Source: Nanobdellota archaeon (GTDB lineage: Archaea; Nanobdellota; Nanobdellia; Pacearchaeales; GW2011-AR1). Taken from it: 64,000 bases of DNA. The stretch spans positions 245 to 64,244 of the forward strand of contig JBBSZK010000009.1 of the NCBI GenBank assembly GCA_038044745.1. The letters are read 5' to 3'. The notes beneath the pieces were generated by a model that searched no databases, was not told the DNA's origin, and saw only the letters and a list, made by a program, of their open reading frames with translations. The position numbers and the translations under genes were made by a program. This document shows, piece after piece, positions 5,143 to 56,669 of the stretch. The first letter of the stretch is position 1, and each line of letters starts with the position of its first letter.

Positions 5143-5610
5143 TTAGTTTGCAGATTCGTCAGAATCCTCGGAGTCATCTGACGCGTCAGACTCAACGGAG
5201 TTTTCTGATTCTGTATCATCGCTTTCAAGAACGTCTTCGGATTCGTTATCACCGACCATTTCCAAGTCTGCGAGGGTAAGGAGTATTTTATCCAGTTTTG
5301 CATTAATCTGTTTGAGTTGGTCAAGGGATACGTTTGATTGCGGCCCCGTTCTTTCGGAAGTTCGCGGTCTAAACGACGGGCGTGCATCGCCGTCAGGCCT
5401 AAAGCATTCACTGCAAAAGACAGGTTTCGTACCAGTTGGCCGAAAAGGAACTTGACAATGTTTTCCACACTTACTACACTCTGCATCGTGCATCTGTGGT
5501 CGTCCTCGGTCCGCATTTCGATCGCGGTTAAATCTACTTCTGCTCTCAAAGCTACTTGGTCGACCACCAAATCTGCGACCTTCTCGATTATCTCGTCCAA
5601 AATCTCTCAT
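5143..5610 (-). CDS. CxxC-x17-CxxC zinc-finger protein with Arg-rich N-terminus and acidic tail
   Basis: CSKC-17 aa-CSEC exactly fits the CxxC-x17-CxxC domain. The N-terminus is RGG/RDR-rich and the C-terminus is an SDE-rich acidic tail. The overlapping ORF 5127..5600 is judged spurious. Confidence 0.7.
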   Translation of the reverse strand: MRDFGRDNREGRRFGGRPSSFESRSRFNRDRNADRGRPQMHDAECSKCGKHCQVPFRPTGTKPVFCSECFRPDGDARPSFRPRTSERTGPQSNVSLDQLKQINAKLDKILLTLADLEMVGDNESEDVLESDDTESENSVESDASDDSEDSDESAN

Positions 5611-6128: not shown

Positions 6129-6141
6129 TACGCCCGGACCA
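6129..6141. repeat. Direct repeat of the tRNA-Ser 3' end (distal att-like site)
   Basis: tacgcccggacca is 13/13 identical to 7298-7310 in the same orientation. That site comprises 2 flanking nt, the discriminator, the acceptor 3' strand and 3 nt of the T-stem of tRNA-Ser. Confidence 0.8.
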
Positions 6142-6230
6142 AACCCGGCTCACTTTTGCATAATCCGTGGGACTCTATTGATTAGGTACTTCTGTATGTT
6201 TCGCGAGTTTTATAAATCTTGTCGATAAGC
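6142..6230 (+). repeat. Conserved element left arm (copy S)
   Basis: Shares an ordered motif series with copies A and B: cac/catttg, attaggtac (6181-6189), and the TATA-like tttataaatcttgtcgata (6208-6226). Confidence 0.6.
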
Positions 6231-6277
6231 AAGTGACCAACGGAAGATTTATATACCGGTAAGATATTCTTACCTTC

Positions 6278-6544
6278 ATGGAAATAGAACTTACAAAAAT
6301 AAGTAGTAAGGGACAAATAGTCATACCCTTAGATGTGAGAAGAAAACTTGCTCTTAAGGATGGAGAAACATTTGCAGTTTCTACTGAAGATGATTTAATT
6401 GTATTGAAAAAGGTAAAAAACCCTATGGAAGCAGATGATTTGCGTACTCTTAAAGAGATAAAAGAGGCGTGGAAAGAGATTGCCAAAGGAAAATATCGAA
6501 AGATGAACAAAGAAGATTTCCTCAAGGAAATTGATACATGGTAA
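6278..6544 (+). CDS. AbrB/SpoVT-family antitoxin
   Basis: SSKGQIVIPLDVRRKLALKDGETFAV is a SpoVT/AbrB swapped-hairpin motif. The stop TAA is immediately followed by the ATG of the toxin gene. Confidence 0.8.
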   Translation: MEIELTKISSKGQIVIPLDVRRKLALKDGETFAVSTEDDLIVLKKVKNPMEADDLRTLKEIKEAWKEIAKGKYRKMNKEDFLKEIDTW

Positions 6545-6790
6545 ATGGTAGAATATATCTTTACAGAAAAATTTGAGAAGGAATTTAGAAAAGCAGACAA
6601 TTCTATTAAAGAAAAAGCACGAAAGCAAATAAAAAAGATACTTGAAGACCCAGAAACCGGAAAACCATTACGATACGATCTAAAAAGCGAGAGAACTGTT
6701 TATGTTAAACCCTTTAGAATAATCTACTCGTTCTCGAATAACACAATCTACTTCCTACGATTTGAACATCGTGGCGAAGTTTACGAGTAA
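6545..6790 (+). CDS. RelE/ParE-family toxin
   Basis: 81 aa. KFEKEFRK..., GKPLRYDLKSERTVYVKPFRIIYSF..NTIYFLRFEHRGEVY matches the RelE/ParE fold pattern. It is contiguous with the antitoxin gene. Confidence 0.8.
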   Translation: MVEYIFTEKFEKEFRKADNSIKEKARKQIKKILEDPETGKPLRYDLKSERTVYVKPFRIIYSFSNNTIYFLRFEHRGEVYE

Positions 6791-6843
6791 GAATCGGCAA
6801 TTCTATATTGGCTAATCTGCAGGAAGGCACTAACTAGATTGTG

Positions 6844-7203
6844 TTATGAGAAAAGCAAAAACTGATGTCCTTCTTCAACTTGAGGAATTTTTCCAGTTAA
6901 GTAAGTTTTGACGGTTTCCCAAAATCCTTTCGGTTTTCTTTCATTCAATATTCGACCCACATAGTCTTCTCCGTGTCTTCGCGTGAGCGCAACAACCGCT
7001 CCTCTCGCTTCGAAAGCTGGATGGTTATCACTTAAAGCTAGAAGTCGTTCGTTTTCATGAAAAGGTTTAGTTTTTTGTTGAGCAATGTAAAACTCAATTC
7101 TTGCTTCTAAAACATCTGATGACACAGAACTAAGTCTATCCGCTCTTGCTTGAACTTTCAGAGCATTATGGAACTCAAACGAGTAACCGAATCCACTTAT
7201 CAT
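6844..7203 (-). CDS. Hypothetical protein (119 aa), cargo of the tRNA-Ser islet
   Basis: Clean ORF with no recognisable motif. Confidence 0.5.
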   Translation of the reverse strand: MISGFGYSFEFHNALKVQARADRLSSVSSDVLEARIEFYIAQQKTKPFHENERLLALSDNHPAFEARGAVVALTRRHGEDYVGRILNERKPKGFWETVKTYLTGKIPQVEEGHQFLLFS

Positions 7204-7299
7204 ATAAAATCCTCTAAGACCAGCTTTTTAAGCCTTTCTAGAGTGCCCTCATTTAATCTGATTTTATCGAAGCCCCATGAAAAATGCAAAAGTGTAATA

Positions 7300-7384
7300 C
7301 GCCCGGACCAGGATTTGAACCTGGGAAACGCTTGCGCGTAACGAGATTAGCAATCTCGCGCCGTAACCGCTGGGCCATCCGGGC
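7300..7384 (-). tRNA. tRNA-Ser (anticodon GCU)
   Basis: Reverse complement is GCCCGGA TG GCC..GGC G CGAGA TTGCTAA TCTCG. It has a long variable arm (ACGC-GCAA-GCGT), T-arm CCAGG TTCAAAT CCTGG, acceptor TCCGGGC and discriminator G. CCA is not encoded. Confidence 0.9.
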
Positions 7385-7453
7385 ACGACTGTCCGAGATA
7401 AAAGTCGTTTATAAGTGTTGCCCTTGAAACAATCTGCCAAAAAGTAAGCGCAT

Positions 7454-37775: not shown

Positions 37776-37881
37776 TTGTAACGGCGAAATGACGTTGGTA
37801 AACGGGATAACAATTCTGTATAAAAGTGGCTTTTTAAATGTATCGCCCGCACCCTAATTTCAGGCAACATAGTGCTGGTCT

Positions 37882-37892
37882 CCGACGGGATT
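37882..37892. repeat. Fossil fragment of the tRNA-Lys T-arm
   Basis: ccgacgggatt is identical to 50029-50039 in the same orientation, 64 nt left of att copy A. Confidence 0.45.
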
Positions 37893-37955
37893 CCCGAAGG
37901 TTCAAAAGAACCGAGGGGGACTAAGGATTGCAATCCTTAGGATGTTCAAATCCAA

Positions 37956-37967
37956 ATGGCCCCGACG
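37956..37967. repeat. Direct repeat of the tRNA-Lys 3' end (att copy A)
   Basis: atggccccgacg is 12/13 identical to 50023-50035 in the same orientation. Confidence 0.7.
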
Positions 37968-38064
37968 ACCCTAACGCATTTTGACTAAAACTTGGCGTAT
38001 TATTAGGTACAAGTTTTATACAAGATTATGTGATCTTCAGAATTTTTAAGGATTGTCGAGATAC
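37968..38064 (+). repeat. Conserved element left arm (copy A)
   Basis: Aligns with 39296-39388 and 6142-6230 through an ordered series: cattttg, ggcgta, attaggtac (38002-38010), ttatac, and atttttaaggattgtcgaga (38042-38061). Confidence 0.65.
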
Positions 38065-38074
38065 AGTCTATCGA

Positions 38075-38398
38075 TTAGAAACCAAAAAGTCTTTCGTAAT
38101 CTTTGTGATTCATCCAATTGAGTAATGCTGCGATTATCTCAATTTGTCCTCCAGATGTAATAGAATAGAGCAATCTCCAACCAGTCGGAAGATCATAAAT
38201 CCATAAGTTATTTAGATTATATTTATCAATCAACTTTTTAGGAATTAACTCTTTTTTCACGTTTCTTCCGCAAGAGAAGTTTTCCTGAATTGCACCTACT
38301 GCGCGTATTATTCCTTTCTTTATTGGGTCGTTATCAGATAACTCATTAAAGCTTTCTTCAAGTTCTTGGTCTACAAAGATCACTTTATCAGGTTTCAT
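38075..38398 (-). CDS. RelE/ParE-like toxin (107 aa)
   Basis: C-terminal NLWIYDLPTGWRLLYSITSGGQIEIIAALLNWMNHKDYERLF fits the RelE/ParE pattern (..W.....yRl.Y.i.....i.i..i..H..Y). It overlaps the upstream partner gene by 4 nt. Confidence 0.5.
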   Translation of the reverse strand: MKPDKVIFVDQELEESFNELSDNDPIKKGIIRAVGAIQENFSCGRNVKKELIPKKLIDKYNLNNLWIYDLPTGWRLLYSITSGGQIEIIAALLNWMNHKDYERLFGF

Positions 38399-38685
38399 AG
38401 TTTAATGGCCGGTCTGTTCTTTATTTTTTCAAAGAATGCAGGATTCCAAATATAAACGAGAAATCCTTCATTATCATATGCTATCTTTCCAATGCTTTCC
38501 AGATATTCAATAATAACTTGAAACGTTTGCCACATTACCTTGCGAGGAAGATTATTGAACAGTTCTGTTTTTTTGAATTCTCCGCTATGTTTCTCAATAA
38601 ATTTCTCAGCCATTAGCACAGTCTGTAAGGTGGGAGATCGTGCAAATTCTGATTTCTTCTCGCTTGTTAGTTCCATATCAATCAT
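38395..38685 (-). CDS. Putative antitoxin / winged-helix protein (96 aa)
   Basis: Translationally coupled (ATGA overlap) to the RelE-like gene. No strong motif. Confidence 0.4.
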   Translation of the reverse strand: MIDMELTSEKKSEFARSPTLQTVLMAEKFIEKHSGEFKKTELFNNLPRKVMWQTFQVIIEYLESIGKIAYDNEGFLVYIWNPAFFEKIKNRPAIKL

Positions 38686-38776
38686 ATCAATTGATATTAT
38701 TTAAACTTTCCGGTTTTAATGATTGTCGAGAAGAGAAATCGTTAAAGTCTACGATTTAAAGCGAATATCTTTCTCT

Positions 38777-39172
38777 TTACTTAACTCTTTTACTTCTACC
38801 TTCTAAGTCCTTTCTCATCTTATCAAGATTATGTTTCGAAGGAAATACTATAAGTCCATCAACTTGGTGCTTGTTTCCATCATACTCAAAATACCCGAGA
38901 TTGTATAAACTAAACCAAGATTTTTCTACAGTAGTGAATTTCCAAGACTTAGGAATATCAGCAGGTTCATTCATAACAATAACTAAATCAATATCAGAAC
39001 CGATTTGATTTCTATAAGGTTCTTTGTAAAGACCAAATTTTCTTTCAGCAAGAGAGGCCCAAACATAGGCTTCTTTGACACTACTAGATTTAGATAGAAG
39101 TTTTTTAATAAAGTCTTCAGCTTTAACCCAGACGTCATCCTGGTCAGCATATAGGATTTTTTCTGGTTTCAT
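38777..39172 (-). CDS. Minimal nucleotidyltransferase-domain protein
   Basis: GSDIDLVIV (G-S...D-x-D NTase motif). 131 aa. No adjacent HEPN partner. Confidence 0.6.
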   Translation of the reverse strand: MKPEKILYADQDDVWVKAEDFIKKLLSKSSSVKEAYVWASLAERKFGLYKEPYRNQIGSDIDLVIVMNEPADIPKSWKFTTVEKSWFSLYNLGYFEYDGNKHQVDGLIVFPSKHNLDKMRKDLEGRSKRVK

Positions 39173-39178
39173 AAAGAT

Positions 39179-39198
39179 TCTCGATATTATCTAAACTG
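39179..39198 (-). repeat. Inverted copy of the terminal TATA-like/ATCGAGA motif (right end of islet 1); probably also the NTase promoter
   Basis: Plus strand tctcgatattatctaaactg. The reverse complement tttagataatatcgaga lies 7-27 nt upstream of the NTase ATG. Confidence 0.45.
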
Positions 39199-39282
39199 AA
39201 TAACTTAACTATAAAAGTCTTATTAAGCGACTTGTATAATCCTTGTACATACAAAAACTACGAAATTTGACAAAAATATATG

Positions 39283-39295
39283 ATGGCCCCGACGG
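39283..39295. repeat. Direct repeat of the tRNA-Lys 3' end (att copy B)
   Basis: atggccccgacgg is 13/13 identical to 50023-50035 in the same orientation. Confidence 0.8.
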
Positions 39296-39388
39296 CCCTA
39301 GTACATTTTGTCCATTTTTCGGCGTAGTGATTGGTACAAGCCTTATACAGATTCTCTAGACATAAGCGATTTATAAATATTGTCTAGA
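39296..39388 (+). repeat. Conserved element left arm (copy B), ending in the 23-nt TIR gcgatttataaatattgtctaga
   Basis: See copy A. The TIR partner lies at 49936-49958. Confidence 0.65.
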
Positions 39389-39421
39389 AGAATTGCAAAA
39401 ATCAATCTGAGGTTGTTCTAC

Positions 39422-39958
39422 TTATGCTGTTCCAGGTCGGATATAAAAATAACCTTTGCAATTTTCAGAAACTCCGGACAAATCCCTCTTAAGAATTTTT
39501 TCAGAGTCAATACCTTTTCCACCAATCCATAAAGGCGATTGATGACCTGAATTGAGAGGCAATCCATTGTAGTGGCTGTCTATTTCTAGTAATCTAGAAA
39601 GATTGCCTGGACCTTGAGCAAATCCTCGTGAACCTGCCCCATCTCTAATTTCTGCAGCAATAAGGGTAACGCAAGAGGGTTTTCCAAATTTACCTGTCGC
39701 AATGTCTACAAGGTGCTTACCATATTTAGTGCTAACCGAAACAATTCCTGAAGCGTATTTTATTCCTTCAGAAGCCGTCTTTGCATCTCCTTGATAAGCG
39801 GCTACTTCATGTAGTTGCGCATATAGTGTTGCTGAACCCTCGCGTCCTACAACAAAAACACGTCCTAATAGATCTTGAGCCACATCAACTGCAGGTCTAG
39901 CAAAAAAGTCATGACTAAGCTGTGTCTTTCGATGTGGAATGTCAAATCCTTTGGCCAT
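39422..39958 (-). CDS. DNA-3-methyladenine glycosylase (MPG/AAG family)
   Basis: FFARPAVDVAQDLLGRVFVV...EVAAYQGD...A...GPGNLSRLLEID matches the MPG family layout. Confidence 0.7.
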   Translation of the reverse strand: MAKGFDIPHRKTQLSHDFFARPAVDVAQDLLGRVFVVGREGSATLYAQLHEVAAYQGDAKTASEGIKYASGIVSVSTKYGKHLVDIATGKFGKPSCVTLIAAEIRDGAGSRGFAQGPGNLSRLLEIDSHYNGLPLNSGHQSPLWIGGKGIDSEKILKRDLSGVSENCKGYFYIRPGTA

Positions 39959-39992
39959 TATGTGTTACTCTGTAATGGTTACATAAACATAA

Positions 39993-40009
39993 GCTTTATA
40001 AACTTTATG
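39993..40009 (+). promoter_or_regulatory. TATA/BRE-like promoter cassette gctttataaactttatg
   Basis: TATA centre about 24 nt upstream of the ATG at 40024. Identical 17-mer at 16570-16586. Confidence 0.5.
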
Positions 40010-40023
40010 CTGACCCTCTTTAT

Positions 40024-41040
40024 ATGGAAAAAAGACCCGAATATAAGGGGACTTTTCAAGACCTCTGTGTAGACCAAGTAAGGCGTGGAAATAGCTATGC
40101 GTCTGGTTTTTTAAAAGATGGTAAAAGTGCTCTTGCTCTTGCATTAGAACGTGCGAAACGTATTGGTCTTCCTACTGAGGTAATACATAGAGCAGAAGAA
40201 AGAGGCATGCTTGAATCAGAAGCAGGTAAGTCCGTACTTGCTAACAGTTCTTACAGCCTTTTAATGAGACAAAAGCCCGCAGTTATTAATAGTGTGAAGA
40301 AAACCTTTTTCTTGAGCGATTCAGAAGTAAATCATCTTCTCACGGCCGCTGTGGGGGATGGTCTTCTTCTTATGGATGATGAACATTCTGAAATTAAAAT
40401 CCTCGCGTCAGACGAAGAACATACTATTATTACGACTAATGCTGATGAGGTACTCGCTACTAGAAAAGTTGAGACGGAAAGCGAAAGATTAGACAGGGTA
40501 CAAAAAGAAATTAACAAACAAATAGATAACAGAAATAAAAGAGAGAAAGTAAGAGTAATCAAAGGAGACGATTGCATCTCCTCTAAAAATCTGTCAGAAA
40601 GCGCACTAGAATACCTCAGAAAGAACAAGTATAAGGAAATCTCATTCAAAGGAATAATATCGGGAAATAAGCAGAAATATTTCATTAAGCCTAAAAAGAG
40701 TGAAAGTCCGCAACACATATTCTGCGTGTATGATATTGCATCATATCTGAAAAGCTTCACAGAAAAAGTGTTTACCTATCATGCCGTTAAAGCAGATATC
40801 GTGTTTGAAGTGAATGGAAAAGAATATGCGATTGAAGTTGAAACAGGCAAGATGATGAAACATAAAAAAGAAGAGCTAAAGAAGAAAGTAGAGAATCTTA
40901 ACAATAAATATCAAGACAGATGGTTCTTTGTTGTGACTGATAGAAATTTAAGAACAAAATATGCTAAATTAGGTACGACCTATGATAAAAGACACCTAAC
41001 AAGCGTTATTAATCGCATTGTCAGTGATTCTGCCAACTGA
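40024..41040 (+). CDS. Chimeric protein: N-terminal segment resembling the extreme C-terminus of VirB4/HerA-FtsK-type transfer ATPases (no P-loop) plus a C-terminal PD-(D/E)xK nuclease-like domain
   Basis: N-terminal part: ...FFLSDSEVNHLLTAAVGDGLLLMDDEHSEIKILASDEEHTIITTNADEV. C-terminal part: VKADIVFEVNGKEYAIEVETGK (D...E.E.K-like). No Walker A motif anywhere. Confidence 0.4.
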   Translation: MEKRPEYKGTFQDLCVDQVRRGNSYASGFLKDGKSALALALERAKRIGLPTEVIHRAEERGMLESEAGKSVLANSSYSLLMRQKPAVINSVKKTFFLSDSEVNHLLTAAVGDGLLLMDDEHSEIKILASDEEHTIITTNADEVLATRKVETESERLDRVQKEINKQIDNRNKREKVRVIKGDDCISSKNLSESALEYLRKNKYKEISFKGIISGNKQKYFIKPKKSESPQHIFCVYDIASYLKSFTEKVFTYHAVKADIVFEVNGKEYAIEVETGKMMKHKKEELKKKVENLNNKYQDRWFFVVTDRNLRTKYAKLGTTYDKRHLTSVINRIVSDSAN

Positions 41041-41131
41041 CAGCCTATTGTCAGTAGGATTTAAGGTCTTTTCAGCCAAATTTCAGCCGTTCATCGACGA
41101 ACTTATAAAAGTAGGACTGCGTATTGTCAGT
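41017..41131 (+). repeat. Three direct copies of ATTGTCAGT (iteron-like)
   Basis: Copies at 41017-41025, 41047-41055 and 41123-41131. The second forms the palindrome actgaca-gcctat-tgtcagt with upstream sequence. Related to the ATTGTCGAGA end motif. Confidence 0.5.
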
Positions 41132-41221
41132 TAACGATTTCTCTCTTTCTCTTCTTCTCTCTGCCTCTCGGACAGATGGTGGGGGCCGGTGCAGCGCTAG
41201 GAATTACATTTTTAATAAGCG

Positions 41222-41257
41222 ACACCACGTCTTTTTTTTGAAGAACTGACGTGGTGT
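41222..41257. terminator. Hairpin with T8 loop between convergent island genes
   Basis: 10-bp stem acaccacgtc / gacgtggtgt (41222-41231 and 41248-41257). The 16-nt loop begins with tttttttt. Confidence 0.35.
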
Positions 41258-41280
41258 GCTTTGGGCTACCCGAGTATTAA

Positions 41281-42831
41281 TTAAAATTTAGTCGCGTTGA
41301 TAAACGCAGAAACTTGATTTACAATTTCTGAATAAGTTATGCTCTGATTTTCCCACACATTCAAGATACGGAAAAGAGAAGGCATGTTAGTAAACGACTC
41401 TCCTGTAATGATATAGTTAAACACCCACGTTTGATTATTGAGAACGGTTGCTCTATTGAAATTGCCTAAATATTGTTCTCCCAATTGGTTAAACAAATAA
41501 ACTTGTCGATTATTGAGGATAAAATTATTAGGTAGGGAGGCATTGATACCCTGCTCTATGGCCAAATCTCCTTCACTATTGTTTGCCCCATATACAACTA
41601 CAAGTTTTGGCCTGCGGCTTACATTTGTGTCGTCTTTGCCTGCTATTCTCACTTCTTTTCCAGTTGTATAAAAGCCAACGAAACCAGTGCTAAATCTATC
41701 ACTCGTAAGTCCCTTTTCAAAGTCTCGACCTGCTTCTTCTGATAAAGGAATGTCTATAAATTCAAGCGTTTGATAACCATTCTCGCTGTAGAACGATGCA
41801 TTGCCCATATCGTTATAAAATTGACAATTGCCCTGACAGCTAGGAGTGGTATCGCTGTAACTTCCGCTCCATCCCTCCATGGGGGTAACTCCTAGATATA
41901 CGTTTTGTGAAGAAGGTGAGGCGGTTGTAAGAAATAACTCAAGATTCACAGATTGCACTGCTGAAGAATCTGATATTGAAGAAATATTCCAGTCTATATT
42001 TGCACGAGCCATACGCCCCAGATCAGAAGGAATCACTATAAGTTCTCCCGCCTGAAGATAGGTCGAAGGATTATTAGTTCTAGTGTAAGTAGAGGTCGTA
42101 GCATTGGTACGATTGATAATATAGCCATTCCATAAAATTGCACTCGAATCCAAACTTAGACTGGGATCAATAATAAGAGGATATTGTATATCGGGATATG
42201 CCAAAAATGAAGTAGGAACATGTACAGTAATGTTACTTCCAGTATTTTCATAGACAAGATCAAGACACAGACCTTTTGCATCACATATAAATGGGGGAAG
42301 AATAGTGAAGTCTGCATCTCCCTCCTTAGAAAATACCAAATTAATGCCTTCTTGTGATGAGGCCCCTAGGGGATTATTAATAACGATTTCTTCCTTGAGT
42401 AAAGTTGGCAAATAATGATATCTCACATCAACATCATTAATGACATTAGAATAAAATATACTATTTTCTCGCATTGAAGGAGTAAATGTTGGGGTCGCGC
42501 CATTAATCTCTATGAGTTTCATAGAAATACTTTGTCCATGACGGAAAGCAGTGATAGTTCCATCAGCACGAGCTTCCGCACGATAGTAATAATCTCTTGT
42601 GCAGTATTTAGTAATTTCAGATTCTGAGCACTGGGAGAAACTTTCATCAATCTCCCCCCAACGTCCATTGTTACCTTTCCAATACTTATCGTAAGAGTAG
42701 ATTTGAGCAGTACACGAACTACCCTCGCAGACAGTATCCCAATTGGAGCCGTAATTTGTTTCTTGAGCATATACGAAGGTCGAACTAATAAATATCAGAA
42801 AAATGGTCAACATAAAGTAAATCTTACTCAT
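41281..42831 (-). CDS. Secreted protein (516 aa), possibly with a DNRLRE-like beta-sandwich
   Basis: Signal peptide MSKIYFMLTIFLIFISSTFVYAQE. Asn/Ser/Thr-rich and beta-rich. The segment ANIDWNISSISDSSAVQSVNLELFLT is reminiscent of DNRLRE domains. Confidence 0.7.
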   Translation of the reverse strand: MSKIYFMLTIFLIFISSTFVYAQETNYGSNWDTVCEGSSCTAQIYSYDKYWKGNNGRWGEIDESFSQCSESEITKYCTRDYYYRAEARADGTITAFRHGQSISMKLIEINGATPTFTPSMRENSIFYSNVINDVDVRYHYLPTLLKEEIVINNPLGASSQEGINLVFSKEGDADFTILPPFICDAKGLCLDLVYENTGSNITVHVPTSFLAYPDIQYPLIIDPSLSLDSSAILWNGYIINRTNATTSTYTRTNNPSTYLQAGELIVIPSDLGRMARANIDWNISSISDSSAVQSVNLELFLTTASPSSQNVYLGVTPMEGWSGSYSDTTPSCQGNCQFYNDMGNASFYSENGYQTLEFIDIPLSEEAGRDFEKGLTSDRFSTGFVGFYTTGKEVRIAGKDDTNVSRRPKLVVVYGANNSEGDLAIEQGINASLPNNFILNNRQVYLFNQLGEQYLGNFNRATVLNNQTWVFNYIITGESFTNMPSLFRILNVWENQSITYSEIVNQVSAFINATKF

Positions 42832-43160
42832 AGTTTCTGTTTACCTCCATATTTCAACCAAGCAATTGAACAGGATAACAGATAAGCCACGAATAAGGGC
42901 ATTAATACAATGAAAAGATATGTTAATATCAACTCATTGAATGTCGTACAGCTACAATGACAGCCCACTTTTATGATAAGATACTTACTGTAGTCCGTAC
43001 AGCCATCAAATCCGCCTCTTTCACAAAAACATCTCATGCTTCCAAATACAGTCCAGGATAATATTAGCCAGAATACAAATAATATTACGAGAGTAACTAT
43101 TTTAAATCGAGTTGGTCGCCAAAACCCATTCGTCTTTTGTTGCAGCACTATCTTTTTCAT
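42828..43160 (-). CDS. Cys-rich small membrane protein (110 aa)
   Basis: Two TM helices flank CFCERGGFDGCTDYSKYLIIKVGCHCSC. The ORF has a 4-nt overlap with the downstream gene. Confidence 0.6.
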   Translation of the reverse strand: MKKIVLQQKTNGFWRPTRFKIVTLVILFVFWLILSWTVFGSMRCFCERGGFDGCTDYSKYLIIKVGCHCSCTTFNELILTYLFIVLMPLFVAYLLSCSIAWLKYGGKQKL

Positions 43161-43161
43161 C

Positions 43162-46100
43162 CTAAATTGTAACTCCTATTCTATCCATTTCTATGTAGTT
43201 ACTACTGGTTGCTAAAAATGTAGCATTATAACTTCCAGAAGTGGAATAATTATGATAAATATATACAAAAATAGCTTCCGCAGGCTGTAAATGAAATAGC
43301 AGAGTAGAATCCTTGATATCCTCTCCAGAATCAAATTGCCAGGTTATATTTGCTATATTGAAGTTGGCAGTATTGTTCAATTCTACTAAAAAGACACGTT
43401 CAGTACTATTCGTATAAACTTCCTTGAAATTAACAATTTGTAAGTCATTGTCTACCCCGAAGGTGTTGGTCATTGCACTAGAATTCGTGTTAGCACCATC
43501 ACTTGCTAATACCTTGATTTTATAAGTAGTGCCATCTGGAAGATCGCTTGAATTTATAGAGTAAGAAGTCTGATTGAGATCAAGAGCCACCGTACTATAA
43601 GTAGTCCCGTTATCGGGACTGACTAAGATGGCATAACTTAATGTATCTCCATCTGAGTCAGAAGCAGTCCAATTTATGGTTAGTTCCTGATTACTAAATA
43701 TTTGACTACCTGGATAAGAAGTTAAAGTGAGAGCAGGCACATGTGCGGATACATTTCGCGTATCTTTAGTCACACCGTCTTTCTTTAATATGAATTTGGA
43801 AAAGCTCTGATTAAAGGGGATAGTAAATGCAAAGGCAGTTTCATTTATTTGAGTAGAATTGCTTCCAAGTAAAAAGTAAGTAAAAGAAACATCGAAACTA
43901 AAGTTGTAAACTAAACCGTTAGTACTGTTATAGGCTTCAATAGTATAATTTCCAGTTTGATATTCAGTTTGATTAATTGCTAAACCCGCACCCACCGTGT
44001 AGAAGTTTTCAAATCTTCCCGTATCAGAAGATCCATTGATAATCCCCGATACAACAATACGGGATGTTGTAGATATAGGGGTTGCATGTTTAAATTCCTG
44101 AAGTAGATGCTCATAAGACTCGTCAGAAATCCAGTTTCTCTTTGTAACCAAAAGATTCCCCATAAAGTTAGATAAGGGATCTGTATAAAGGGGATCGACT
44201 GTAAGAGGGCTCAAGGTGGAGGCAGGGCAACCATCTGGAGCGCATCCCGCATCCAAGATCTCATCATTGTTGGCATCACCATTTGGACAAAGATCCGTAA
44301 AGCCAAGGAAAGAATTTTGAGACGACCATTCATCACTATCGTATTCATCACAAAATCCATAAGTGTGACCGAGTTCATGGGCGGCAACATGATCTAGAAC
44401 ATTATAGTCTTCGAGGTCAGCTTCGACTAGCACTCCATTGTTAAACATACTACTAACTCCATGTGTACCTTGGTCTCCAAAGATGTTATCTGCAAACCAA
44501 TGAAAAGGAACTATCCCGACAGCTCTTTCAGGGAGTTCGCCAGCTATCAACGTGCTTCTATAAACTCTATGCATCAATAAGGGGAAACCAACCCCATAAG
44601 GGGCTCTTTCGGCTATATTGCTTTGGATACCTGTTCGATTAGTCTTTGCGATTAAACCAGTATCGCTTAAAGGATAGGTTTTCTTTATAAAATCAATAGA
44701 ATCACTAGCCACATTATCAAAGTTCCCAGCATTATCAACAGAAACAAAAGTCACGCTTAGGTTCCTAGTAGCGCTTACATTAACTACCTTTTTAGCGACT
44801 CCACCGAAGACCGCAACCTTCACTTCCTTATTATTGCCGGCAACATCGGGTTTAAAGTAGAAATCAATAGTTTTCATAGTCTCTGTTGCGTTAAATATAG
44901 CGGTAGTTGAATTCTTTAAAACATTATCAAAATACAAACTAACCAAAACTTGTGAATTGGAAGAAGCGTTTATCTCAGTTCTGACTAAAGTTTTTCGGTC
45001 CTTAACTAATTCTGTGTTTTCGATGACCTGGGCTAATCTCATGCTATTTATATTTCCAGACCCGTTGTTTTCATACCATTCTACAAAATCTGTAAAACCT
45101 CGCGCACCCACTACATCTATAGCCTCATCCCCATTTAAGTCTACACTCTGTAAAAAGGAAACTCCGTTGCCAGTGGAAGTTATAGTTTTCCTAGTCCAAT
45201 TCAATGACGAACCACTGTTCTCATACCACGATATTTTAAAATCATTATCTGATCCGCTTACAACATCAACATCTCCATCGCCGTCAAAATCTGCTGCAGA
45301 TACAGCAACTGCTCCGTCAGCGCTTGTGTTAATTATTCTACCGGTCCAACCTGCAGGAATTGAACCATTGTTCTCATACCAAGCAACCTTATCATCGTTT
45401 CGAGAAGCACTTAATACATCCATATCTCCATCACTATCCAAGTCAGTTGCATATACGGAACGAGCGTCATCCGCTGTGGTGTTTATAGTTCTTGTTGTCC
45501 AAGTCAGGGGGCTTCCACCATTATTTTGATACCATTCTATTTTATCGTTATCTCTTGATGCACTAATAACATCAGTATCATTGTCCTTGTCCATATCTAT
45601 AGCATATAACGATCGTATCTCTCCAACTGATGAAACCAATACATTCTCCGTCCAGGTTGGGGGAGACCCACCATTATTTTTAATAAAATAAATTTCGCCC
45701 AAGCCTAAACTTTCACCAACTATAATGTCCATTCGTCCATCTTTGTCTAAGTCCGCAACAATTACAGTTCTTGGAGAATAAGGAGGCCCGAGATTGCTCA
45801 CAGTTCGGTTTGTCCATCCTGGCGGACTCGATCCGTTGTTCTGGTACCAAATGACTTGGCCATTATCAACACCGGTATGAGATACACTTACAACATCGAT
45901 ATAAGTATCATTATTTATATCTGCTGCGAAAACTGCTTTAGGCGAAAGAAAGGAAGTGGCTATTGATCTCTCAATCCAAGTTGAGCCATTGTTTTCGTAC
46001 CAAGCTATCTTCTTATCATTCTCTGATGAACTTACTACATCAAGATCCCCGTCTTTGTCTATGTCTGCAGTATACAATCCAGTTGCCCAGTCTGCAGAAG

Positions 46101-46827
46101 AACCGATTACATGTGTGGTCCATCCCAATTCAGGGTCAATTGCTAATTCCTGCAATTGAGCCAAATCCACGTTTAGTTCTAAATCAATATAATTGCGATT
46201 TTCTTTAGAATAAACTGATACCTTATAATCAAAGTTTAAAATATCTTTAAAATCATAATAATTGTTCCCAAAATAAATAACATTCCCATCTAAATAAGTC
46301 TCTTCATCAGTTGAAGAGGCATCTCTTTTGTTCTCAAAGGCTCTAAAATATGTCGGAACAGTCGACAAAGTATAATTTGTCCCATTCCAAATAACTGTGG
46401 AAGAATCAATTTCGTATCTTACATTAAGTTTTACAGTTCTTGATTCAGCTAGTAAGTTTTTAATAAAATAAGTTTGTTTCACAGGTTTTTCTTTAGTGTT
46501 AAAGAGACTTGTATCGTGCTGGCGATAATCACTTTTAACTTCTAGATTGTTGAATTTAAATGTGCTACCATGTTCACCATTCGTTTTCTGGATGTTCTCT
46601 GTGTTAAAATCCTTAGAAGAAGAGATATCAAAAACTATATTTTTATATCCCTTTAAATATGAAAATTTAGTTAAAGCGTTTGTATCGTCGAGATTTTTTA
46701 TTTCTTTATTCTTAACTATTCCTACTTGGTCCTTAGAAATTACAAAATTAGCTTGGAACAAAACAAGAAAAAGCACACCGAGGGCAATAAATCCTATAGA
46801 AAATAGATATGCTCCTCTTCTACCCAT
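43162..46827 (-). CDS. Giant surface protein: TM anchor, 7 FG-GAP/VCBS repeats (beta-propeller), HExxH zinc-metalloprotease domain, Ig/FN3-like modules
   Basis: Trimmed to MGRRGAYLFSIGFIALGVLFLVLF. Seven DxDxDGxxD-type repeats (ADIDKDGDLDVVSSS ... VDLNGDEAIDVVGA), each followed by WYENNGS-like strands. HVAAHELGHTYGFCDEY. C-terminal LTINWTASDSDGDTLSY module. Confidence 0.8.
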   Translation of the reverse strand: MGRRGAYLFSIGFIALGVLFLVLFQANFVISKDQVGIVKNKEIKNLDDTNALTKFSYLKGYKNIVFDISSSKDFNTENIQKTNGEHGSTFKFNNLEVKSDYRQHDTSLFNTKEKPVKQTYFIKNLLAESRTVKLNVRYEIDSSTVIWNGTNYTLSTVPTYFRAFENKRDASSTDEETYLDGNVIYFGNNYYDFKDILNFDYKVSVYSKENRNYIDLELNVDLAQLQELAIDPELGWTTHVIGSSADWATGLYTADIDKDGDLDVVSSSENDKKIAWYENNGSTWIERSIATSFLSPKAVFAADINNDTYIDVVSVSHTGVDNGQVIWYQNNGSSPPGWTNRTVSNLGPPYSPRTVIVADLDKDGRMDIIVGESLGLGEIYFIKNNGGSPPTWTENVLVSSVGEIRSLYAIDMDKDNDTDVISASRDNDKIEWYQNNGGSPLTWTTRTINTTADDARSVYATDLDSDGDMDVLSASRNDDKVAWYENNGSIPAGWTGRIINTSADGAVAVSAADFDGDGDVDVVSGSDNDFKISWYENSGSSLNWTRKTITSTGNGVSFLQSVDLNGDEAIDVVGARGFTDFVEWYENNGSGNINSMRLAQVIENTELVKDRKTLVRTEINASSNSQVLVSLYFDNVLKNSTTAIFNATETMKTIDFYFKPDVAGNNKEVKVAVFGGVAKKVVNVSATRNLSVTFVSVDNAGNFDNVASDSIDFIKKTYPLSDTGLIAKTNRTGIQSNIAERAPYGVGFPLLMHRVYRSTLIAGELPERAVGIVPFHWFADNIFGDQGTHGVSSMFNNGVLVEADLEDYNVLDHVAAHELGHTYGFCDEYDSDEWSSQNSFLGFTDLCPNGDANNDEILDAGCAPDGCPASTLSPLTVDPLYTDPLSNFMGNLLVTKRNWISDESYEHLLQEFKHATPISTTSRIVVSGIINGSSDTGRFENFYTVGAGLAINQTEYQTGNYTIEAYNSTNGLVYNFSFDVSFTYFLLGSNSTQINETAFAFTIPFNQSFSKFILKKDGVTKDTRNVSAHVPALTLTSYPGSQIFSNQELTINWTASDSDGDTLSYAILVSPDNGTTYSTVALDLNQTSYSINSSDLPDGTTYKIKVLASDGANTNSSAMTNTFGVDNDLQIVNFKEVYTNSTERVFLVELNNTANFNIANITWQFDSGEDIKDSTLLFHLQPAEAIFVYIYHNYSTSGSYNATFLATSSNYIEMDRIGVTI

Positions 46828-46849
46828 CTCCGACCGATGAGAGTCTACT

Positions 46850-48595
46850 TTAAATAAGTTTCTGTAGCTGGATTCTGGAAAGAGGAAGATTGTCAACATT
46901 GTTATTATCTCCATTGAACAGATAGGTCTCATCGCAGAATCCGTCTTTCTGCTTGTCTAAACAAGTCTCGCTAAAGCCTGTTCCATCAGGCTTCGCCCAA
47001 TAATTCCCGCCGACAAAGGGGCCACCCACAATATTTGAACTCTTCTGCTTAGTAGTATTTCCATAATTAGACCCAGTTACACCTGCATTATTCCAATTAT
47101 TGAAATAATTATTGTATAGTTTATTCCCAAAGGTAGTAGGGCCATCCATCCGCAACCCTTGAGCGTTAGAATAAATATAATTTTGAGTAAACGTGTTTAA
47201 AGAAGATTCCGATAAATAAAAGCCGTAAGTGTCAATCGATCTCACAGTATTGTTTATGAGAGTATTGTTTCGAGAGTTAGTAAACCTAAACCCGTAGGTT
47301 GCAAAGATGTCTCCGCCATCAATAAGATTATTGGAGAATTTGTTGCTATTTGAATTTTCAGCGACTATGGAAATGTAAATCGATTCAAACTTATTGTCTT
47401 TTATAATATTATTTCCTTGTTTTAAATGCATTCCCCATCCAGGGATATTAAAGAAAGTATTGTTTATAATAAGCCCGCTGGAATGAGTTTTCATGCCCAC
47501 ATCGTAATCTGAAATTATACAATTTTTTACTGTTACTCCTGACTGTAAAACAGTTATCCCCGCAGCGTCATGAGGAGAATAAATATGCGCATAATTACAG
47601 TCCAAGGTAATTCCTGCCTTATTTATCTTAATTCCTTGTGGTAGTCGATAAGAACCTAAGCACAATTTGGTGTCATTCATTATCACAAACCCATCGGTAG
47701 GAGATACGCAGTGCCAACCATCAAATTCAATAAAGGGAAGATGATCTTGATTTTGCTCGTCTATTATGAGCGGGTTATCACAGATGCCATCTCTATCGGA
47801 GTCTCCACAAAACTCATCCCTATTATCGTAATTACTCCAATAATTACCTCCTATAGGAAGAGAGAAATCCCATACATTTCCACCGTTATTGACGACTTGA
47901 ACTTCGTTTTCGACAAAATTATTGTTGTAAACCTCGTTACTTGGAGAAACAATAGATATTCCCCTTTTATTATAGGTTATATCGTTATCCTTGACCTCAT
48001 TGAAACTTGATCCAGAACCTAAAGATACTCCATTTTCATTAGAAAAGACTACATTGCTAATAAAACTATTATTAGTAGACGAATCGACGACTATCCCACT
48101 AGCCTTATTGTCCGAAATATTATTATTTAAAAGGGCAATAGTCTGGGAGTTAGATATTAAAAAAGCGTTAGAGTTATGATATAATGCATTATTAGAGAAA
48201 GTATTATTGCTAGAGCCAGCAATAGATAGGGCATAGTCGTTAGTCGAAAGAACGTTATTAGTTACGAGATTATGTGCAGAGTTATTAAAATAAATTCCTT
48301 GAGAGAAGTTCTCAATCTTACCATATTTTACTGAAAAAGAATCGAATCCATTATTTAGAACTCCCGTACCTTCGCCATTGCCTACAATTTTATGGCCGAA
48401 TAGATTTAAGTAAACATTATTTGCTTGGATTGTCAGGCAAGTTCCACTTGCTGCGATATCGTTCTGTAAAACATAAATTTCATTCTCAACGTCTAAGGTC
48501 TGACAACCGTATAAATTGCGAGCGCTTGTAAAATTTAATATAAATACAAGAAGGAATAAAATAGAAACTAATCTTATCAACCTCATTCGTAGCAC
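46850..48595 (-). CDS. Right-handed parallel beta-helix (PbH1/NosD-like) repeat protein, secreted or anchored
   Basis: N-terminal hydrophobic segment, then many N-x-I/V-x-x-N repeats (NNVLSTNDYALSIAGSSNNTFSNNALYHNSNAF...). Confidence 0.75.
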   Translation of the reverse strand: MLRMRLIRLVSILFLLVFILNFTSARNLYGCQTLDVENEIYVLQNDIAASGTCLTIQANNVYLNLFGHKIVGNGEGTGVLNNGFDSFSVKYGKIENFSQGIYFNNSAHNLVTNNVLSTNDYALSIAGSSNNTFSNNALYHNSNAFLISNSQTIALLNNNISDNKASGIVVDSSTNNSFISNVVFSNENGVSLGSGSSFNEVKDNDITYNKRGISIVSPSNEVYNNNFVENEVQVVNNGGNVWDFSLPIGGNYWSNYDNRDEFCGDSDRDGICDNPLIIDEQNQDHLPFIEFDGWHCVSPTDGFVIMNDTKLCLGSYRLPQGIKINKAGITLDCNYAHIYSPHDAAGITVLQSGVTVKNCIISDYDVGMKTHSSGLIINNTFFNIPGWGMHLKQGNNIIKDNKFESIYISIVAENSNSNKFSNNLIDGGDIFATYGFRFTNSRNNTLINNTVRSIDTYGFYLSESSLNTFTQNYIYSNAQGLRMDGPTTFGNKLYNNYFNNWNNAGVTGSNYGNTTKQKSSNIVGGPFVGGNYWAKPDGTGFSETCLDKQKDGFCDETYLFNGDNNNVDNLPLSRIQLQKLI

Positions 48596-48660
48596 AATAA
48601 TAAAGAGTATTTAGATTTTTTCTTTTATAGTCTTCTTTTATAGATCTTCTGCGGTTGATT

Positions 48661-49797
48661 TTAACACCCTTGATGTTGTCCTCTATCCGAAGTTATCAAC
48701 TTGCCTTCAGAATTAAAATGAGACAAACCATTATGCTCAAAAACATGGTCAATACAACACATATCGGGACGATAATCTAGAATCATAATCTCTCCTGGTT
48801 TTGTATTAACTCTGTCCTTAAGGTCTTGCGGTAGATGACGTTCCATAGCAGCCTGATGCCATTTTAGAACTATTTGTTTAGGATCTGCATGATTAGGATA
48901 AAATCCACACACTTCTAGTTTTCCAAAATCGTGTGACGCAAGTAAGACGCCTTTTTTCTCTAAACCGCTTAGATGTCTTTTTGACTCCTCAACATTAGCA
49001 GAGGCTTCATGCAAGGGTATTCCATATTGTTCAACTTCTCGTACGGGCATGAAAACGGTAAGATAATAAGAAATTATTTTATTATCTAAGAACCTCTGTT
49101 GTAGATCAACCAACGTAGGAACACTATCATTAACTCCTCTAATGATTGCAGGCTGACCCCTTATTTGTACACCTGCTTGTTGCAGTTTTCGTGTAGTCTC
49201 GCCTGAATGTTCATTCATCTCCCCCGGATGGTTAATCTGTGCAATAACGCTTACTTGCTTTCCTTTTCGTTGATTTGTTTCGTAAAAGAAATCAAGCAAT
49301 TGTTCATCTCGTAAGTGTTCTGGATTGTACGCCAGACTTTTAGTTGCGAATCTAACCAATCTTACGCCATCATGGTCTATTAATCTTTTGATGACTTCGG
49401 CAAGCTTCTGCGTTTTAATAAGTGCAGCAGGATCGCCCCCAGTGAATAGAATATTATTTACTTCAGGATGATCGGCTAGATACTCTAAAGCTCTATCAAC
49501 TCTTTGCTCAATAGGAACTCGTTCTTTATCTTCATGTCTAATTTCATTGACCTTATAACAAAACTGACAGTTAGAAACACATCGATCATCTAAATGGAAT
49601 AGTAATGTCGGTTTGTATTTGTGTTGAATAAAATGATCCCCATTATGTCTATAAGAAGCATTTCCATAAGGGTCAAACCTTCCTTTAAAGGGTTTAGAGG
49701 CAATAGGAGGAACAACAACGTTAGTCATTTGAGTTCTATAAGGCTCAGATTGAGAGGCAATAAGATCAGTATAGAATCGAGTCACCTTGAAAGGCAT
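48661..49797 (-). CDS. KamA-family radical SAM enzyme (lysine 2,3-aminomutase-like)
   Basis: HKYKPTLLFHLDDRCVSNCQFCYK (CxxxCxxC in the KamA context), followed by FTGGDP. Confidence 0.75.
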   Translation of the reverse strand: MPFKVTRFYTDLIASQSEPYRTQMTNVVVPPIASKPFKGRFDPYGNASYRHNGDHFIQHKYKPTLLFHLDDRCVSNCQFCYKVNEIRHEDKERVPIEQRVDRALEYLADHPEVNNILFTGGDPAALIKTQKLAEVIKRLIDHDGVRLVRFATKSLAYNPEHLRDEQLLDFFYETNQRKGKQVSVIAQINHPGEMNEHSGETTRKLQQAGVQIRGQPAIIRGVNDSVPTLVDLQQRFLDNKIISYYLTVFMPVREVEQYGIPLHEASANVEESKRHLSGLEKKGVLLASHDFGKLEVCGFYPNHADPKQIVLKWHQAAMERHLPQDLKDRVNTKPGEIMILDYRPDMCCIDHVFEHNGLSHFNSEGKLITSDRGQHQGC

Positions 49798-49935
49798 GTG
49801 AGATTCGCCTAAAGCTTGGGATCGTGCAGACCCTTTTTACAATACTACAATATTTTAAATCTTAAATCGACTGTCTGTATGGAAAACGGACTCAGATCCA
49901 TCATCCTTTAAATAAAAAATTACCGATATACTCCA

Positions 49936-49958
49936 TCTCGACAATACTTATAAATCGC
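49936..49958 (-). repeat. Right terminal inverted repeat of the 10.7 kb island
   Basis: The reverse complement gcgatttataagtattgtcgaga matches 39366-39388 at 21 of 23 positions. Confidence 0.6.
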
Positions 49959-50023
49959 CCCAATCTTAATGTGCTACTTATCTGCTTACAAAAAACCCGC
50001 TCTGTGATGTGCCAAAATGGTTA

Positions 50024-50155
50024 TGGCCCCGACGGGATTTGAACCCGCGACACCTGGATTACCTCAACAAAGATTCTTCATTGTCTTTTTGAGGGACAAC
50101 GGAAATCGCTCTGTTGTAAAAGTCCAGTACTCTAACCGGGCTGAGCTACGGAGCC
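50024..50155 (-). tRNA. tRNA-Lys (anticodon UUU) with 57-nt intron at the canonical 37/38 position
   Basis: Reverse complement GGCTCCG TA GCTC..GAGT A CTGGA CTTTTA [57-nt intron] A TCCAG GTGTC GCGGG TTCAAAT CCCGT CGGGGCC A. The intron ends can pair (CAACA / TGTTG), consistent with a bulge-helix-bulge. The 3' end overlaps the att core. Confidence 0.85.
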
Positions 50156-56595: not shown

Positions 56596-56669
56596 GGGGC
56601 CATGGGGTAGCCTAGTTAGCCTTCTACCATGGGGTGGTAGCGACCCCGGTGCGAATCCGGGTGGCCCCA
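56596..56669 (+). tRNA. tRNA-Pro (anticodon GGG)
   Basis: GGGGCCA TG GGGT..GCCT T CTACC ATGGGGT GGTAG CGAC CCCGG TGCGAAT CCGGG TGGCCCC A. Confidence 0.85.

Follow-up and report, generated by a model that had tools for sequence, protein, structure and literature searches.

An integrase-less islet at a tRNA-Ser gene of a groundwater archaeon and its probable place in a DPANN family of tRNA-integrating elements

Results

Features of the tRNA-Ser locus

The window analysed here, a 64-kb stretch of contig JBBSZK010000009.1 from a Hainich groundwater metagenome, belongs to a metagenome-assembled genome (MAG) labelled 'Nanoarchaeota archaeon' at NCBI, and all coordinates refer to it unless another locus is named. 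Its archaeal genes include those for RpoB/RpoA, EF-2 and EF-1 alpha and an intron-containing tRNA. Our subject is a small segment beside a tRNA-Ser gene, termed the islet, that is bounded by two copies of a 13-bp direct repeat and carries a toxin-antitoxin pair and one orphan gene (ORFan). Its features, from the distal to the tRNA-proximal end, are the following.

6129-6141, no strand assigned: distal copy of the 13-bp attachment (att) core (TACGCCCGGACCA), an exact repeat and partial copy of the tRNA-Ser 3' end; the empty site of the sister genome L018 (see below) has one copy
6142-6260, plus strand: distal arm with the inverted-repeat arm at 6151-6174 (perfect over 6151-6160, CACTTTTGCA) and, at 6207-6229, the family motif GTTTTATAAATCTTGTCGATAAG; can be aligned with the left end of each element at tRNA-Lys
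6248-6255: TATA-like sequence TTTATATA ahead of the antitoxin gene
6278-6544, plus strand: antitoxin AbrB/MazE (SpoVT-AbrB fold), 88 aa; Pfam PF04014, E=1.9e-8, 34.5 bits; NCBIfam AbrB domain, E=1.2e-11; 42% identical to the antitoxin of the islet in L198
6545-6790, plus strand: toxin of the ParE/RelE superfamily, 81 aa; Pfam PF05016, E=4e-10, 40.6 bits; 42% identical to the toxin of the islet in L198
6844-7203, minus strand: ORFan, 119 aa, predicted all-helical; start codon 96 nt from the tRNA end and preceded by a box resembling CTTAAAAA
7204-7297, minus strand: tRNA-proximal arm, reading ttaCACTTTTGCATTTTTCATGGGGC... from the tRNA; inverted-repeat arm at 7271-7294, perfect over 7285-7294; fits the arm consensus of 27 aligned loci
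7298-7310, no strand assigned: proximal copy of the 13-bp core, made up of the tRNA-Ser 3' end (3 nt of T-stem, acceptor strand, discriminator) and 2 nt
7300-7384, minus strand: tRNA-Ser(GCU), intact, the target gene (attB); found by Rfam and ARAGORN and 98% identical to the empty-site gene of L018

Two exact copies of TACGCCCGGACCA are found in the 64 kb, at 6129-6141 and 7298-7310, and there is no third. As Rfam places the tRNA-Ser(GCU) gene on the minus strand at 7300-7384 (56.6 bits; ARAGORN gives 7299-7385), the proximal copy comprises 2 flanking nt, the discriminator, the 7-nt 3' strand of the acceptor stem and 3 nt of the T-stem. By an analytic calculation from base composition, 0.0023 exact matches of 13 nt would be expected between the tRNA 3' region (18 offsets) and the 12 kb downstream. 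Inside the repeats lie perfect inverted decamers, cacttttgca at 6151-6160 and tgcaaaagtg at 7285-7294, which are spaced 9 nt from the distal and 3 nt from the proximal repeat and extend to 24 nt at 79% complementarity; base composition puts the chance of a perfect 10-nt inverted pair so near both repeats at about 3e-4. The interior of 1,156 bp (6142-7297) has a G+C content of 36.2%, as against 43-44% in the flanks. The exact repeat at the tRNA-Ser 3' end, the decamers with their two spacers, the AT-richer interior, the AbrB/RelE pair with its orphan companion and the lack of an integrase had all been described in a first-pass annotation of this DNA, and each of these observations was confirmed.

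The toxin gene begins directly after the antitoxin stop codon. The PF04014 and PF05016 scores both exceed their cut-offs, and an NCBIfam RelE/YafQ match of the toxin lies below its own. With type II toxin-antitoxin modules of the AbrB/MazE and RelE/ParE kind the pair has in common the order antitoxin-toxin, the adjacent frames, fitting sizes and the Pfam matches, and judging from its sequence it would constitute a type II addiction module that stabilises the islet. Note that a perfect 10-nt inverted repeat, TATAAATCTT (6211-6220) and AAGATTTATA (6244-6253), connects the arm motif with the TATA box ahead of the toxin-antitoxin genes; it may be an operator for the AbrB-type antitoxin.

The ORFan had no match in family-profile scans, and its sole match among 5.8 billion proteins was itself. 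Its single-sequence structure model reached a pLDDT of 65 and found no Foldseek match better than E=0.9 among solved structures, and it bears no similarity to the profile of the integrases described below. Its start occupies the position of the integrase start in autonomous relatives, where the gap to the tRNA is about 77-100 nt. Neither an integrase nor an integrase remnant was detected in the islet or elsewhere in the 64-kb window, tblastn searches included.

An unoccupied site and further alleles in close relatives

Relatives were found via homologues of the flanking GDSL lipase and then through their contigs. In the sister genome L018 (GCA_964354995.1, Hainich well H52) the flanks are 90-98% identical to those of the window at the DNA level. 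Here the tRNA-Ser gene ends in ...TCAAATCCTGGTCCGGGCGTA / ...TTCAAATCCTGGTCCGGGCGTA and is followed directly by taatcatctttccgatcgtttaaaag... and the gene for a 106-aa membrane protein; this taatcatctttccgatcgtttaaaag flank is the sequence that lies beyond the distal repeat in the window, and the core is present in one copy only. Unoccupied sites with a single core copy were seen in L018-L022. As evidenced by this empty site in a sister genome from the same aquifer, the islet is a real insertion, and relative to L018 the element and one copy of the 13-bp core have been inserted cleanly. A comparative search for such a site had been suggested in the first-pass annotation; no relatives were found with toxin-antitoxin genes at this position and no repeats, and the 13-mer is not a common motif.

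A third allele is present in the co-resident strain L228 (same sample, coverage 10), in which the 106-aa gene is identical and the distal copy of the core is present; ahead of this core stands a different integrase-less element of 3.2 kb with an AbiEi/AbiEii-like pair. Among close relatives within one aquifer the tRNA-Ser site is found empty, occupied by the ParE/MazE islet or occupied by the AbiE islet, and none of these alleles contains an integrase.

Two further differences were noted around this gene. The tRNA-Ser(GCU) at the L228 locus (6168-6255 of that locus) is of a different sequence, with the acceptor GCGGATG, and some 430 nt beyond it (6689-6700) a leftover TGGTCCGGGCGT fragment of the usual tRNA-Ser end is followed by the AbiE-like element; an incoming element may have brought a replacement tRNA into this strain. 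In L018 a gene for a 166-aa PAP2 phosphatase (2275-2775 of that locus) lies between a 75-aa gene and tRNA-Ser. In the window it has been deleted between two copies of 'gattgtttca' (about 7425-7440), leaving a stub of 36 codons.

Two tandem elements at tRNA-Lys and a common arm architecture

The same kind of element is found at a second tRNA gene of the window.

50024-50155, minus strand: tRNA-Lys(UUU) with an intron, target of elements A and B; Rfam 53.8 bits, missed by ARAGORN at default settings
39283-50035 (interior 39296-50022), no strand assigned: element B, 10.7 kb, 37.3% G+C; middle repeat in common with element A, other end at the tRNA-Lys 3' end (50023-50035); no integrase
37956-39295 (interior 37968-39282), no strand assigned: element A, 1.3 kb, 32.5% G+C; ends ATGGCCCCGACG(a) at 37956-37968 and ATGGCCCCGACGG at 39283-39295

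The tRNA-Lys repeat ATGGCCCCGACGG at 50023-50035 recurs at 39283-39295 and, with 12 of 13 positions identical, at 37956-37967, so that two elements stand in tandem at this site, with the middle repeat common to both. Each has a higher A+T content than its flanks. The first-pass annotation had assigned the same geometry and the same tRNA coordinates to the tRNA-Ser and tRNA-Lys sites; the 13-bp repeat and the 3-nt spacer do agree, but the register at tRNA-Lys is shifted by 1 nt and the other spacer measures 8 nt. Its assignment of both sites to one family stands, as the Ser and Lys elements have homologous left ends and homologous right ends, with the amendment that tRNA-Lys holds two elements in tandem instead of one.

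At their left ends the islet and both Lys elements can be aligned over some 110 nt. A profile of these left ends matches the right ends on the opposite strand with E values of 1.4e-7, 8.9e-6 and 8.5e-5, and as the reverse search does likewise, the elements have imperfect inverted arms of about 100 bp. The arms are laid out as core, 3-9 nt, CAyTTTTG and GGG-rich positions, and further in follow a GTACAAGnnTTATACA box and/or the motif TTTATAAnnATTGTCGAGA. When the arm pattern was scanned over one genome per species, DPANN MAGs accounted for 22 of the 117 matches listed, and their loci share positions outside the pattern, namely an almost invariant ATTGTCGAGA, a downstream GGATAG and a GC-rich, tRNA 3'-end-like sequence some 100 nt upstream. 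In the viral collection the Lys-type arm pattern gave 11 matches, all of them chance by profile scoring, and a short proximal-arm profile yielded only 3 matches and was too weak for a systematic counting of arms.

The motif TTT(A/T)TAAnnATTGTCGAGA, with GGATAG 5-6 nt later, is strongly conserved in the element arms of many DPANN MAGs. In the window it occurs at 6207-6229, 38040-38061, 38717-38731, 39367-39388 and, on the minus strand, 49936-49957. Some copies stand directly ahead of Fic or reverse-transcriptase genes and others diverge from the start of an integrase gene, and the motif may be a promoter, an operator or an arm-type binding site.

A tyrosine recombinase family in autonomous relatives

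Clustering of the open reading frames at the DPANN pattern loci revealed a tyrosine recombinase as the sole recurrent recombinase. Its representative in L142 matches PF00589 with E=2.3e-8 and the phrog_1 integrase with E=6e-17 and is distantly XerA-like (E=1e-4 to the solved XerA), and the family falls below the cut-offs of the curated NCBIfam families. A search with an alignment of three integrases retrieved 347 metagenome loci, the best 80 of which were kept. At the protein level there are 2,407 homologues at E<=1e-30, and those with a name are tyrosine-type recombinases/integrases of Nanoarchaeota or Pacearchaeota; full-text searches of the literature found no paper on the family, which carries generic annotation only. 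The integrase alignment had no relatives in the viral collection, and none of the integrase loci lies on a circular contig.

Upstream sequence of more than 300 nt was available for 64 loci, and in 29 of these the end of a same-strand tRNA gene lies 77-400 nt ahead of the integrase start. Twelve tRNA species were identified beside the integrase, and inspection by eye shows several additional tRNAs or copies with the repeat only. In the autonomous relatives the integrase starts about 77-100 nt past the tRNA, behind a common arm sequence. The consensus following the tRNA, taken from 27 aligned loci, reads 1-6 nt, (t)ACyTTTTTG(G/T), about 10 nt, GGG. The proximal arms of the window fit this consensus, with ttaCACTTTTGCATTTTTCATGGGGC at tRNA-Ser and aaCCATTTTGGCACATCACAGAGCGGG for element B at tRNA-Lys, the latter nearly identical to an arm at tRNA-Asp in L168. 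The proposal of the first-pass annotation, that one type of recombinase acts on different tRNA genes, is borne out by this single integrase family, which stands beside at least 12 tRNA species with a common arm sequence.

One complete integrase-bearing element, L222, comprises 7.76 kb at tRNA-Pro; its 13-bp repeat CGGCGGGGGCATT follows directly after TTCAAATCC, in the register seen in the window, and its distal end carries the TTTATAAATGTTGTCA motif. In L142 the geometry is that of the Ser islet, with the repeat, 6 nt and a 22-nt inverted repeat at one end and the inverted repeat, 7 nt and the repeat at the other. Note that a search for the longest exact repeat identified distal repeats for L222 and L210 only, as most elements exceed the 7-kb flank or lie on short contigs. 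The closest counterpart of the islet is found in L198/L199, where the identical core TACGCCCGGACCA occurs twice and bounds an integrase-less unit of 2.6 kb with a RelE/ParE and AbrB/MazE pair, 42% identical to the pair of the window. A second unit follows this toxin-antitoxin unit directly and opens with an integrase gene. These cores and the adjoining integrase show that a cognate integrase for the core TACGCCCGGACCA exists in nature, and in L198 accretion of an integrase-less toxin-antitoxin unit to an integrase-bearing unit is seen.

An integrase on a 467-kb contig from the same sample, with similar coverage, was considered as that of the present genome and rejected: the protein accessions are about 51,000 apart and place it in a different MAG.

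The integrase gene is usually tRNA-proximal and reads away from the tRNA, and elsewhere it is distal and reads toward it (L142, L144, L145 and L198 versus L220, L222 and others). Such a variable position would be expected if the interior can invert between the inverted arms. Geneless units of 67-85 nt that consist only of a proximal and a distal arm between two cores were seen in L210 (728-810; 67 nt) and L175 (about 6670-6760), in both cases directly downstream of tRNA-Ser and upstream of an integrase-bearing element. Recurrent cargo at the DPANN pattern loci comprises Fic/DOC proteins (7 copies) and reverse transcriptases of the diversity-generating retroelement (DGR) type; the latter (RVT_1), together with an RT-16 RNA (Rfam, 82 bits), were seen in L074 (3501-3649 and 3758-4798), L102 and L132.

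Cargo and surroundings of the tRNA-Lys elements

Element A holds three small genes, one of them nucleotidyltransferase-like, and no integrase. Element B has genes for an MPG glycosylase, for large secreted proteins of the beta-helix and FG-GAP-like kinds and for a KamA-like radical SAM enzyme. A further protein of 338 aa (40024-41040, plus strand) combines a segment resembling the VirB4 C-terminus (NCBIfam, E=1e-5, below cut-off) with a C-terminal part reminiscent of a PD-(D/E)xK nuclease, and a homologue of it (E=2e-11) adjoins a fragmented integrase in L074.

Element A is absent from the sister MAG L083 (CAYHBQ010000012.1). There a hybrid left arm is found (5144-5214, compared with window 37957-38027 and 39283-39353) that is of the A type up to GGTACAAGTTTTATACA and of the B type thereafter, a pattern suggesting that A was deleted when the two directly repeated left arms recombined. 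Between the rpoB upstream region and the outermost Lys repeat (37860-37955, plus strand) lies a hairpin-rich stretch with an anticodon-arm-like stem-loop (CTAAGGATTGCAATCCTTAG) and GTTCAAATCC; it is not a standard tRNA, has no Rfam match and falls inside the alignment of L083 and the window (93% identity overall). Finally, a tRNA-Pro(GGG) called by ARAGORN at 56596-56669 was not reported by Rfam at the gathering score.

Discussion

The islet as a probable member of the DPANN family

Most likely, the segment 6142-7297 is a small integrase-less integrated element belonging to a large and widespread family of DPANN elements that integrate at tRNA genes and whose autonomous members encode a tyrosine recombinase. 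The empty site, the homologous arms, the integrase-bearing relatives and the arrangement in L198 lead us to view it as a non-autonomous member of this family that resembles the cis-mobilizable elements (CIMEs) of bacteria. Sequence comparison identifies both of its arms as homologous to arms of relatives that bear an integrase (L142, L222, L198, L220 and others): the proximal arm fits their consensus, the distal arm and motif recur in L222, and L198 has similar arms around the identical core. As to mechanism, this would be ordinary site-specific integration into a tRNA gene. What sets the family apart is its compact 13-bp core with inverted arms, and that so many of its units lack an integrase.

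By analogy with tyrosine integrases, the free element would be a circle whose attP is composed of the proximal arm, the 13-bp core and the distal arm, the arms being imperfect inverted repeats of the form CAyTTTTG...GGG. The predicted junctions are ...TGCAAAAGTGTAA-TACGCCCGGACCA-AACCCGGCTCACTTTTGCA... for attP and ...GGAAAGATAAG-TACGCCCGGACCA-GGATTTGAACC... for attB. The integrase would pair attP with the T-arm and acceptor end of the tRNA gene, strand exchange would take place inside the 13 bp of identity, and the reaction would rebuild an intact tRNA and leave the 13-bp partial copy at the far end. The missing integrase may be explained in two ways. The gene may have been lost or replaced after integration, which would fit the ORFan at the position of the integrase start, or the islet may have been moved in trans by the integrase of a related element, which would fit the tandem arrays in relatives, the three integrase-less elements of the window, the L228 allele and arrays that are mostly integrase-less (L134/L207, L198).

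Several observations weigh against this assignment. There is no integrase in the element or the 64-kb window, and the most promising integrase of the same sample is that of another MAG. A circular or attP form was found neither in the viral collection nor as a circular contig among the integrase loci, and for this reason the 13-mer in the free form is one that we infer. The inverted arm repeats are 25 bp apart across the core, wider than the overlap of classically 6-8 bp in tyrosine recombinases. Lastly, the uniform repeat of 12-14 bp across different tRNAs and ends that resemble terminal inverted repeats (TIRs) would, taken alone, also fit a transposase that duplicates its target site.

Alternative explanations

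The last point leads to a non-autonomous transposon, similar to a casposon or a miniature inverted-repeat transposable element, whose inverted ends are cut by a transposase or a Cas1 casposase acting in trans, with 13-bp staggered cuts at tRNA 3' ends and gap repair creating the target-site duplication. Casposons target tRNA 3' ends with duplications of 14-15 bp, and a T-loop motif TCAAATC is read (PMC6614799). The likeness to the family 2 casposons of Aciduliprofundum boonei and Methanosarcina mazei is considerable, with the tRNA 3' end as target, TIR-like ends (imperfect inverted repeats of about 100 bp in our case), a short repeat of fixed length (constantly 12-14 bp and in the same tRNA register for Ser, Lys and Pro, versus 14-15 bp there) and tandem copies that share a single repeat, as casposons do (PMC4779613). 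However, no Cas1, family-B polymerase or DDE transposase was noticed beside the arms or among some 170 open reading frames of the DPANN pattern loci, which were inspected by clustering and by eye, with Pfam applied to selected proteins only, and in the integrase loci likewise no Cas1 or family-B polymerase was seen; the only recombinase seen repeatedly is the tyrosine integrase, 77-100 nt from the tRNA behind the conserved arm. The extreme termini moreover are asymmetric, ...GGGTT-3' versus ...GTGTAA-3', neither of them resembling the TCCCC-3' of casposons, and the inverted repeats do not start at the junction but are set back from the direct repeats by 9 and 3 nt. With a tyrosine integrase behind the common arms and no Cas1, family-B polymerase or DDE transposase noticed in the loci inspected, we dropped this explanation as very improbable. 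That the repeats are a mere coincidence and the toxin-antitoxin genes native neighbours of tRNA-Ser is practically inconceivable: the repeat is short, with 13 bp, but the empty site of the sister genome refutes this idea, the chance expectations are 0.002 and 3e-4, G+C drops inside the element, and the arms are homologous to those of many other elements.

Another alternative regards integrase-less islets as the normal, cassette-like form and not as a product of decay, with few integrase-bearing elements moving many small promoter-bearing units in trans into tRNA sites, where tandem arrays would build up, as an archaeal functional analogue of integron cassettes and CIMEs. All three elements of the window lack an integrase, as do the three alleles at one tRNA-Ser site among close relatives; the arrays in L134/L207, L198 and L142 hold more integrase-less than integrase-bearing units; there are geneless mini units of 67-85 nt; and the arms contain a conserved TATA-box-like motif. 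Accretion and decay of autonomous elements would, however, yield the same pattern (PMC5704250), no excision products were seen, no integrase could be assigned to this genome, cargo genes keep no fixed orientation with respect to the arms, and some copies of the motif do not precede a gene. We judge this alternative unlikely. Only slightly less doubtful is its extension to a DPANN-wide, cassette-like system at tRNA genes, in which integrase-less units are shuffled in trans by few integrases of one family to give tandem arrays and a rapid turnover of alleles. The cargo of such a system would be ParE/MazE, AbiE, Fic, nucleotidyltransferase and DGR reverse transcriptase, within inverted arms and a 13-bp tRNA-matched core, a picture that we likewise regard as rather doubtful. 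If it were true, tRNA att sites would be the basis of a system functionally analogous to integrons.

Relation to known elements

Elements that target tRNA genes with a non-partitioned tyrosine integrase include those with pNOB8-type or 'type II' archaeal integrases and the P4-like islands of bacteria. The family under study agrees with tRNA-targeting tyrosine-integrase elements in the choice of the tRNA 3' end, in a direct repeat that is the att core, in restoration of the tRNA and in tandem accumulation, and also in the integrase gene of the autonomous relatives, which adjoins the tRNA-proximal junction and is intact. It differs in that the islet has no integrase and in the core, which is short and uniform (12-14 bp, from right after the T-loop), whereas in well-known archaeal integrating elements it spans roughly 30-50 bp. 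Further differences are the imperfect inverted arms of about 100 bp with a DPANN-specific motif and the distance of the integrase from the solved XerA.

In the CIMEs of Streptococcus and other bacteria the genes for integration and transfer have been lost and attL and attR retained, tandem accretion is common, and mobilisation takes place upon accretion to a functional element (PMC5704250). The islet likewise keeps attL and attR without a recombinase gene, and the family shows tandem arrangement with related elements at a tRNA; the host in contrast is archaeal, and there is no link to conjugation. Note that the definition of CIMEs includes an origin by deletion from an integrative and conjugative or an integrative and mobilizable element, and that the islet is likened to them by att retention and the lack of genes only: it contains no integrase remnant, and accretion with an integrase-bearing element is observed in L198 and not in the window. 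With integron cassettes and the integrative mobile elements exploiting Xer (IMEX), finally, it has in common small cargo units without a recombinase of their own, tandem arrays and a site with inverted symmetry, but the site is a tRNA 3' end instead of attI/attC or dif, and a resident platform of integrase and promoter is absent.

Significance

These data document gene flux at the level of strains in ultra-small groundwater archaea, where mobile elements have barely been described, and they tie the alleles at tRNA-Ser to a very large integrase family, with its 2,407 homologues, that has so far carried generic annotation only. The att signature, a 13-bp core after the T-loop combined with inverted CAyTTTTG...GGG arms, offers a means of delimiting integrated elements in DPANN MAGs and of correcting the annotation of tRNA fragments.

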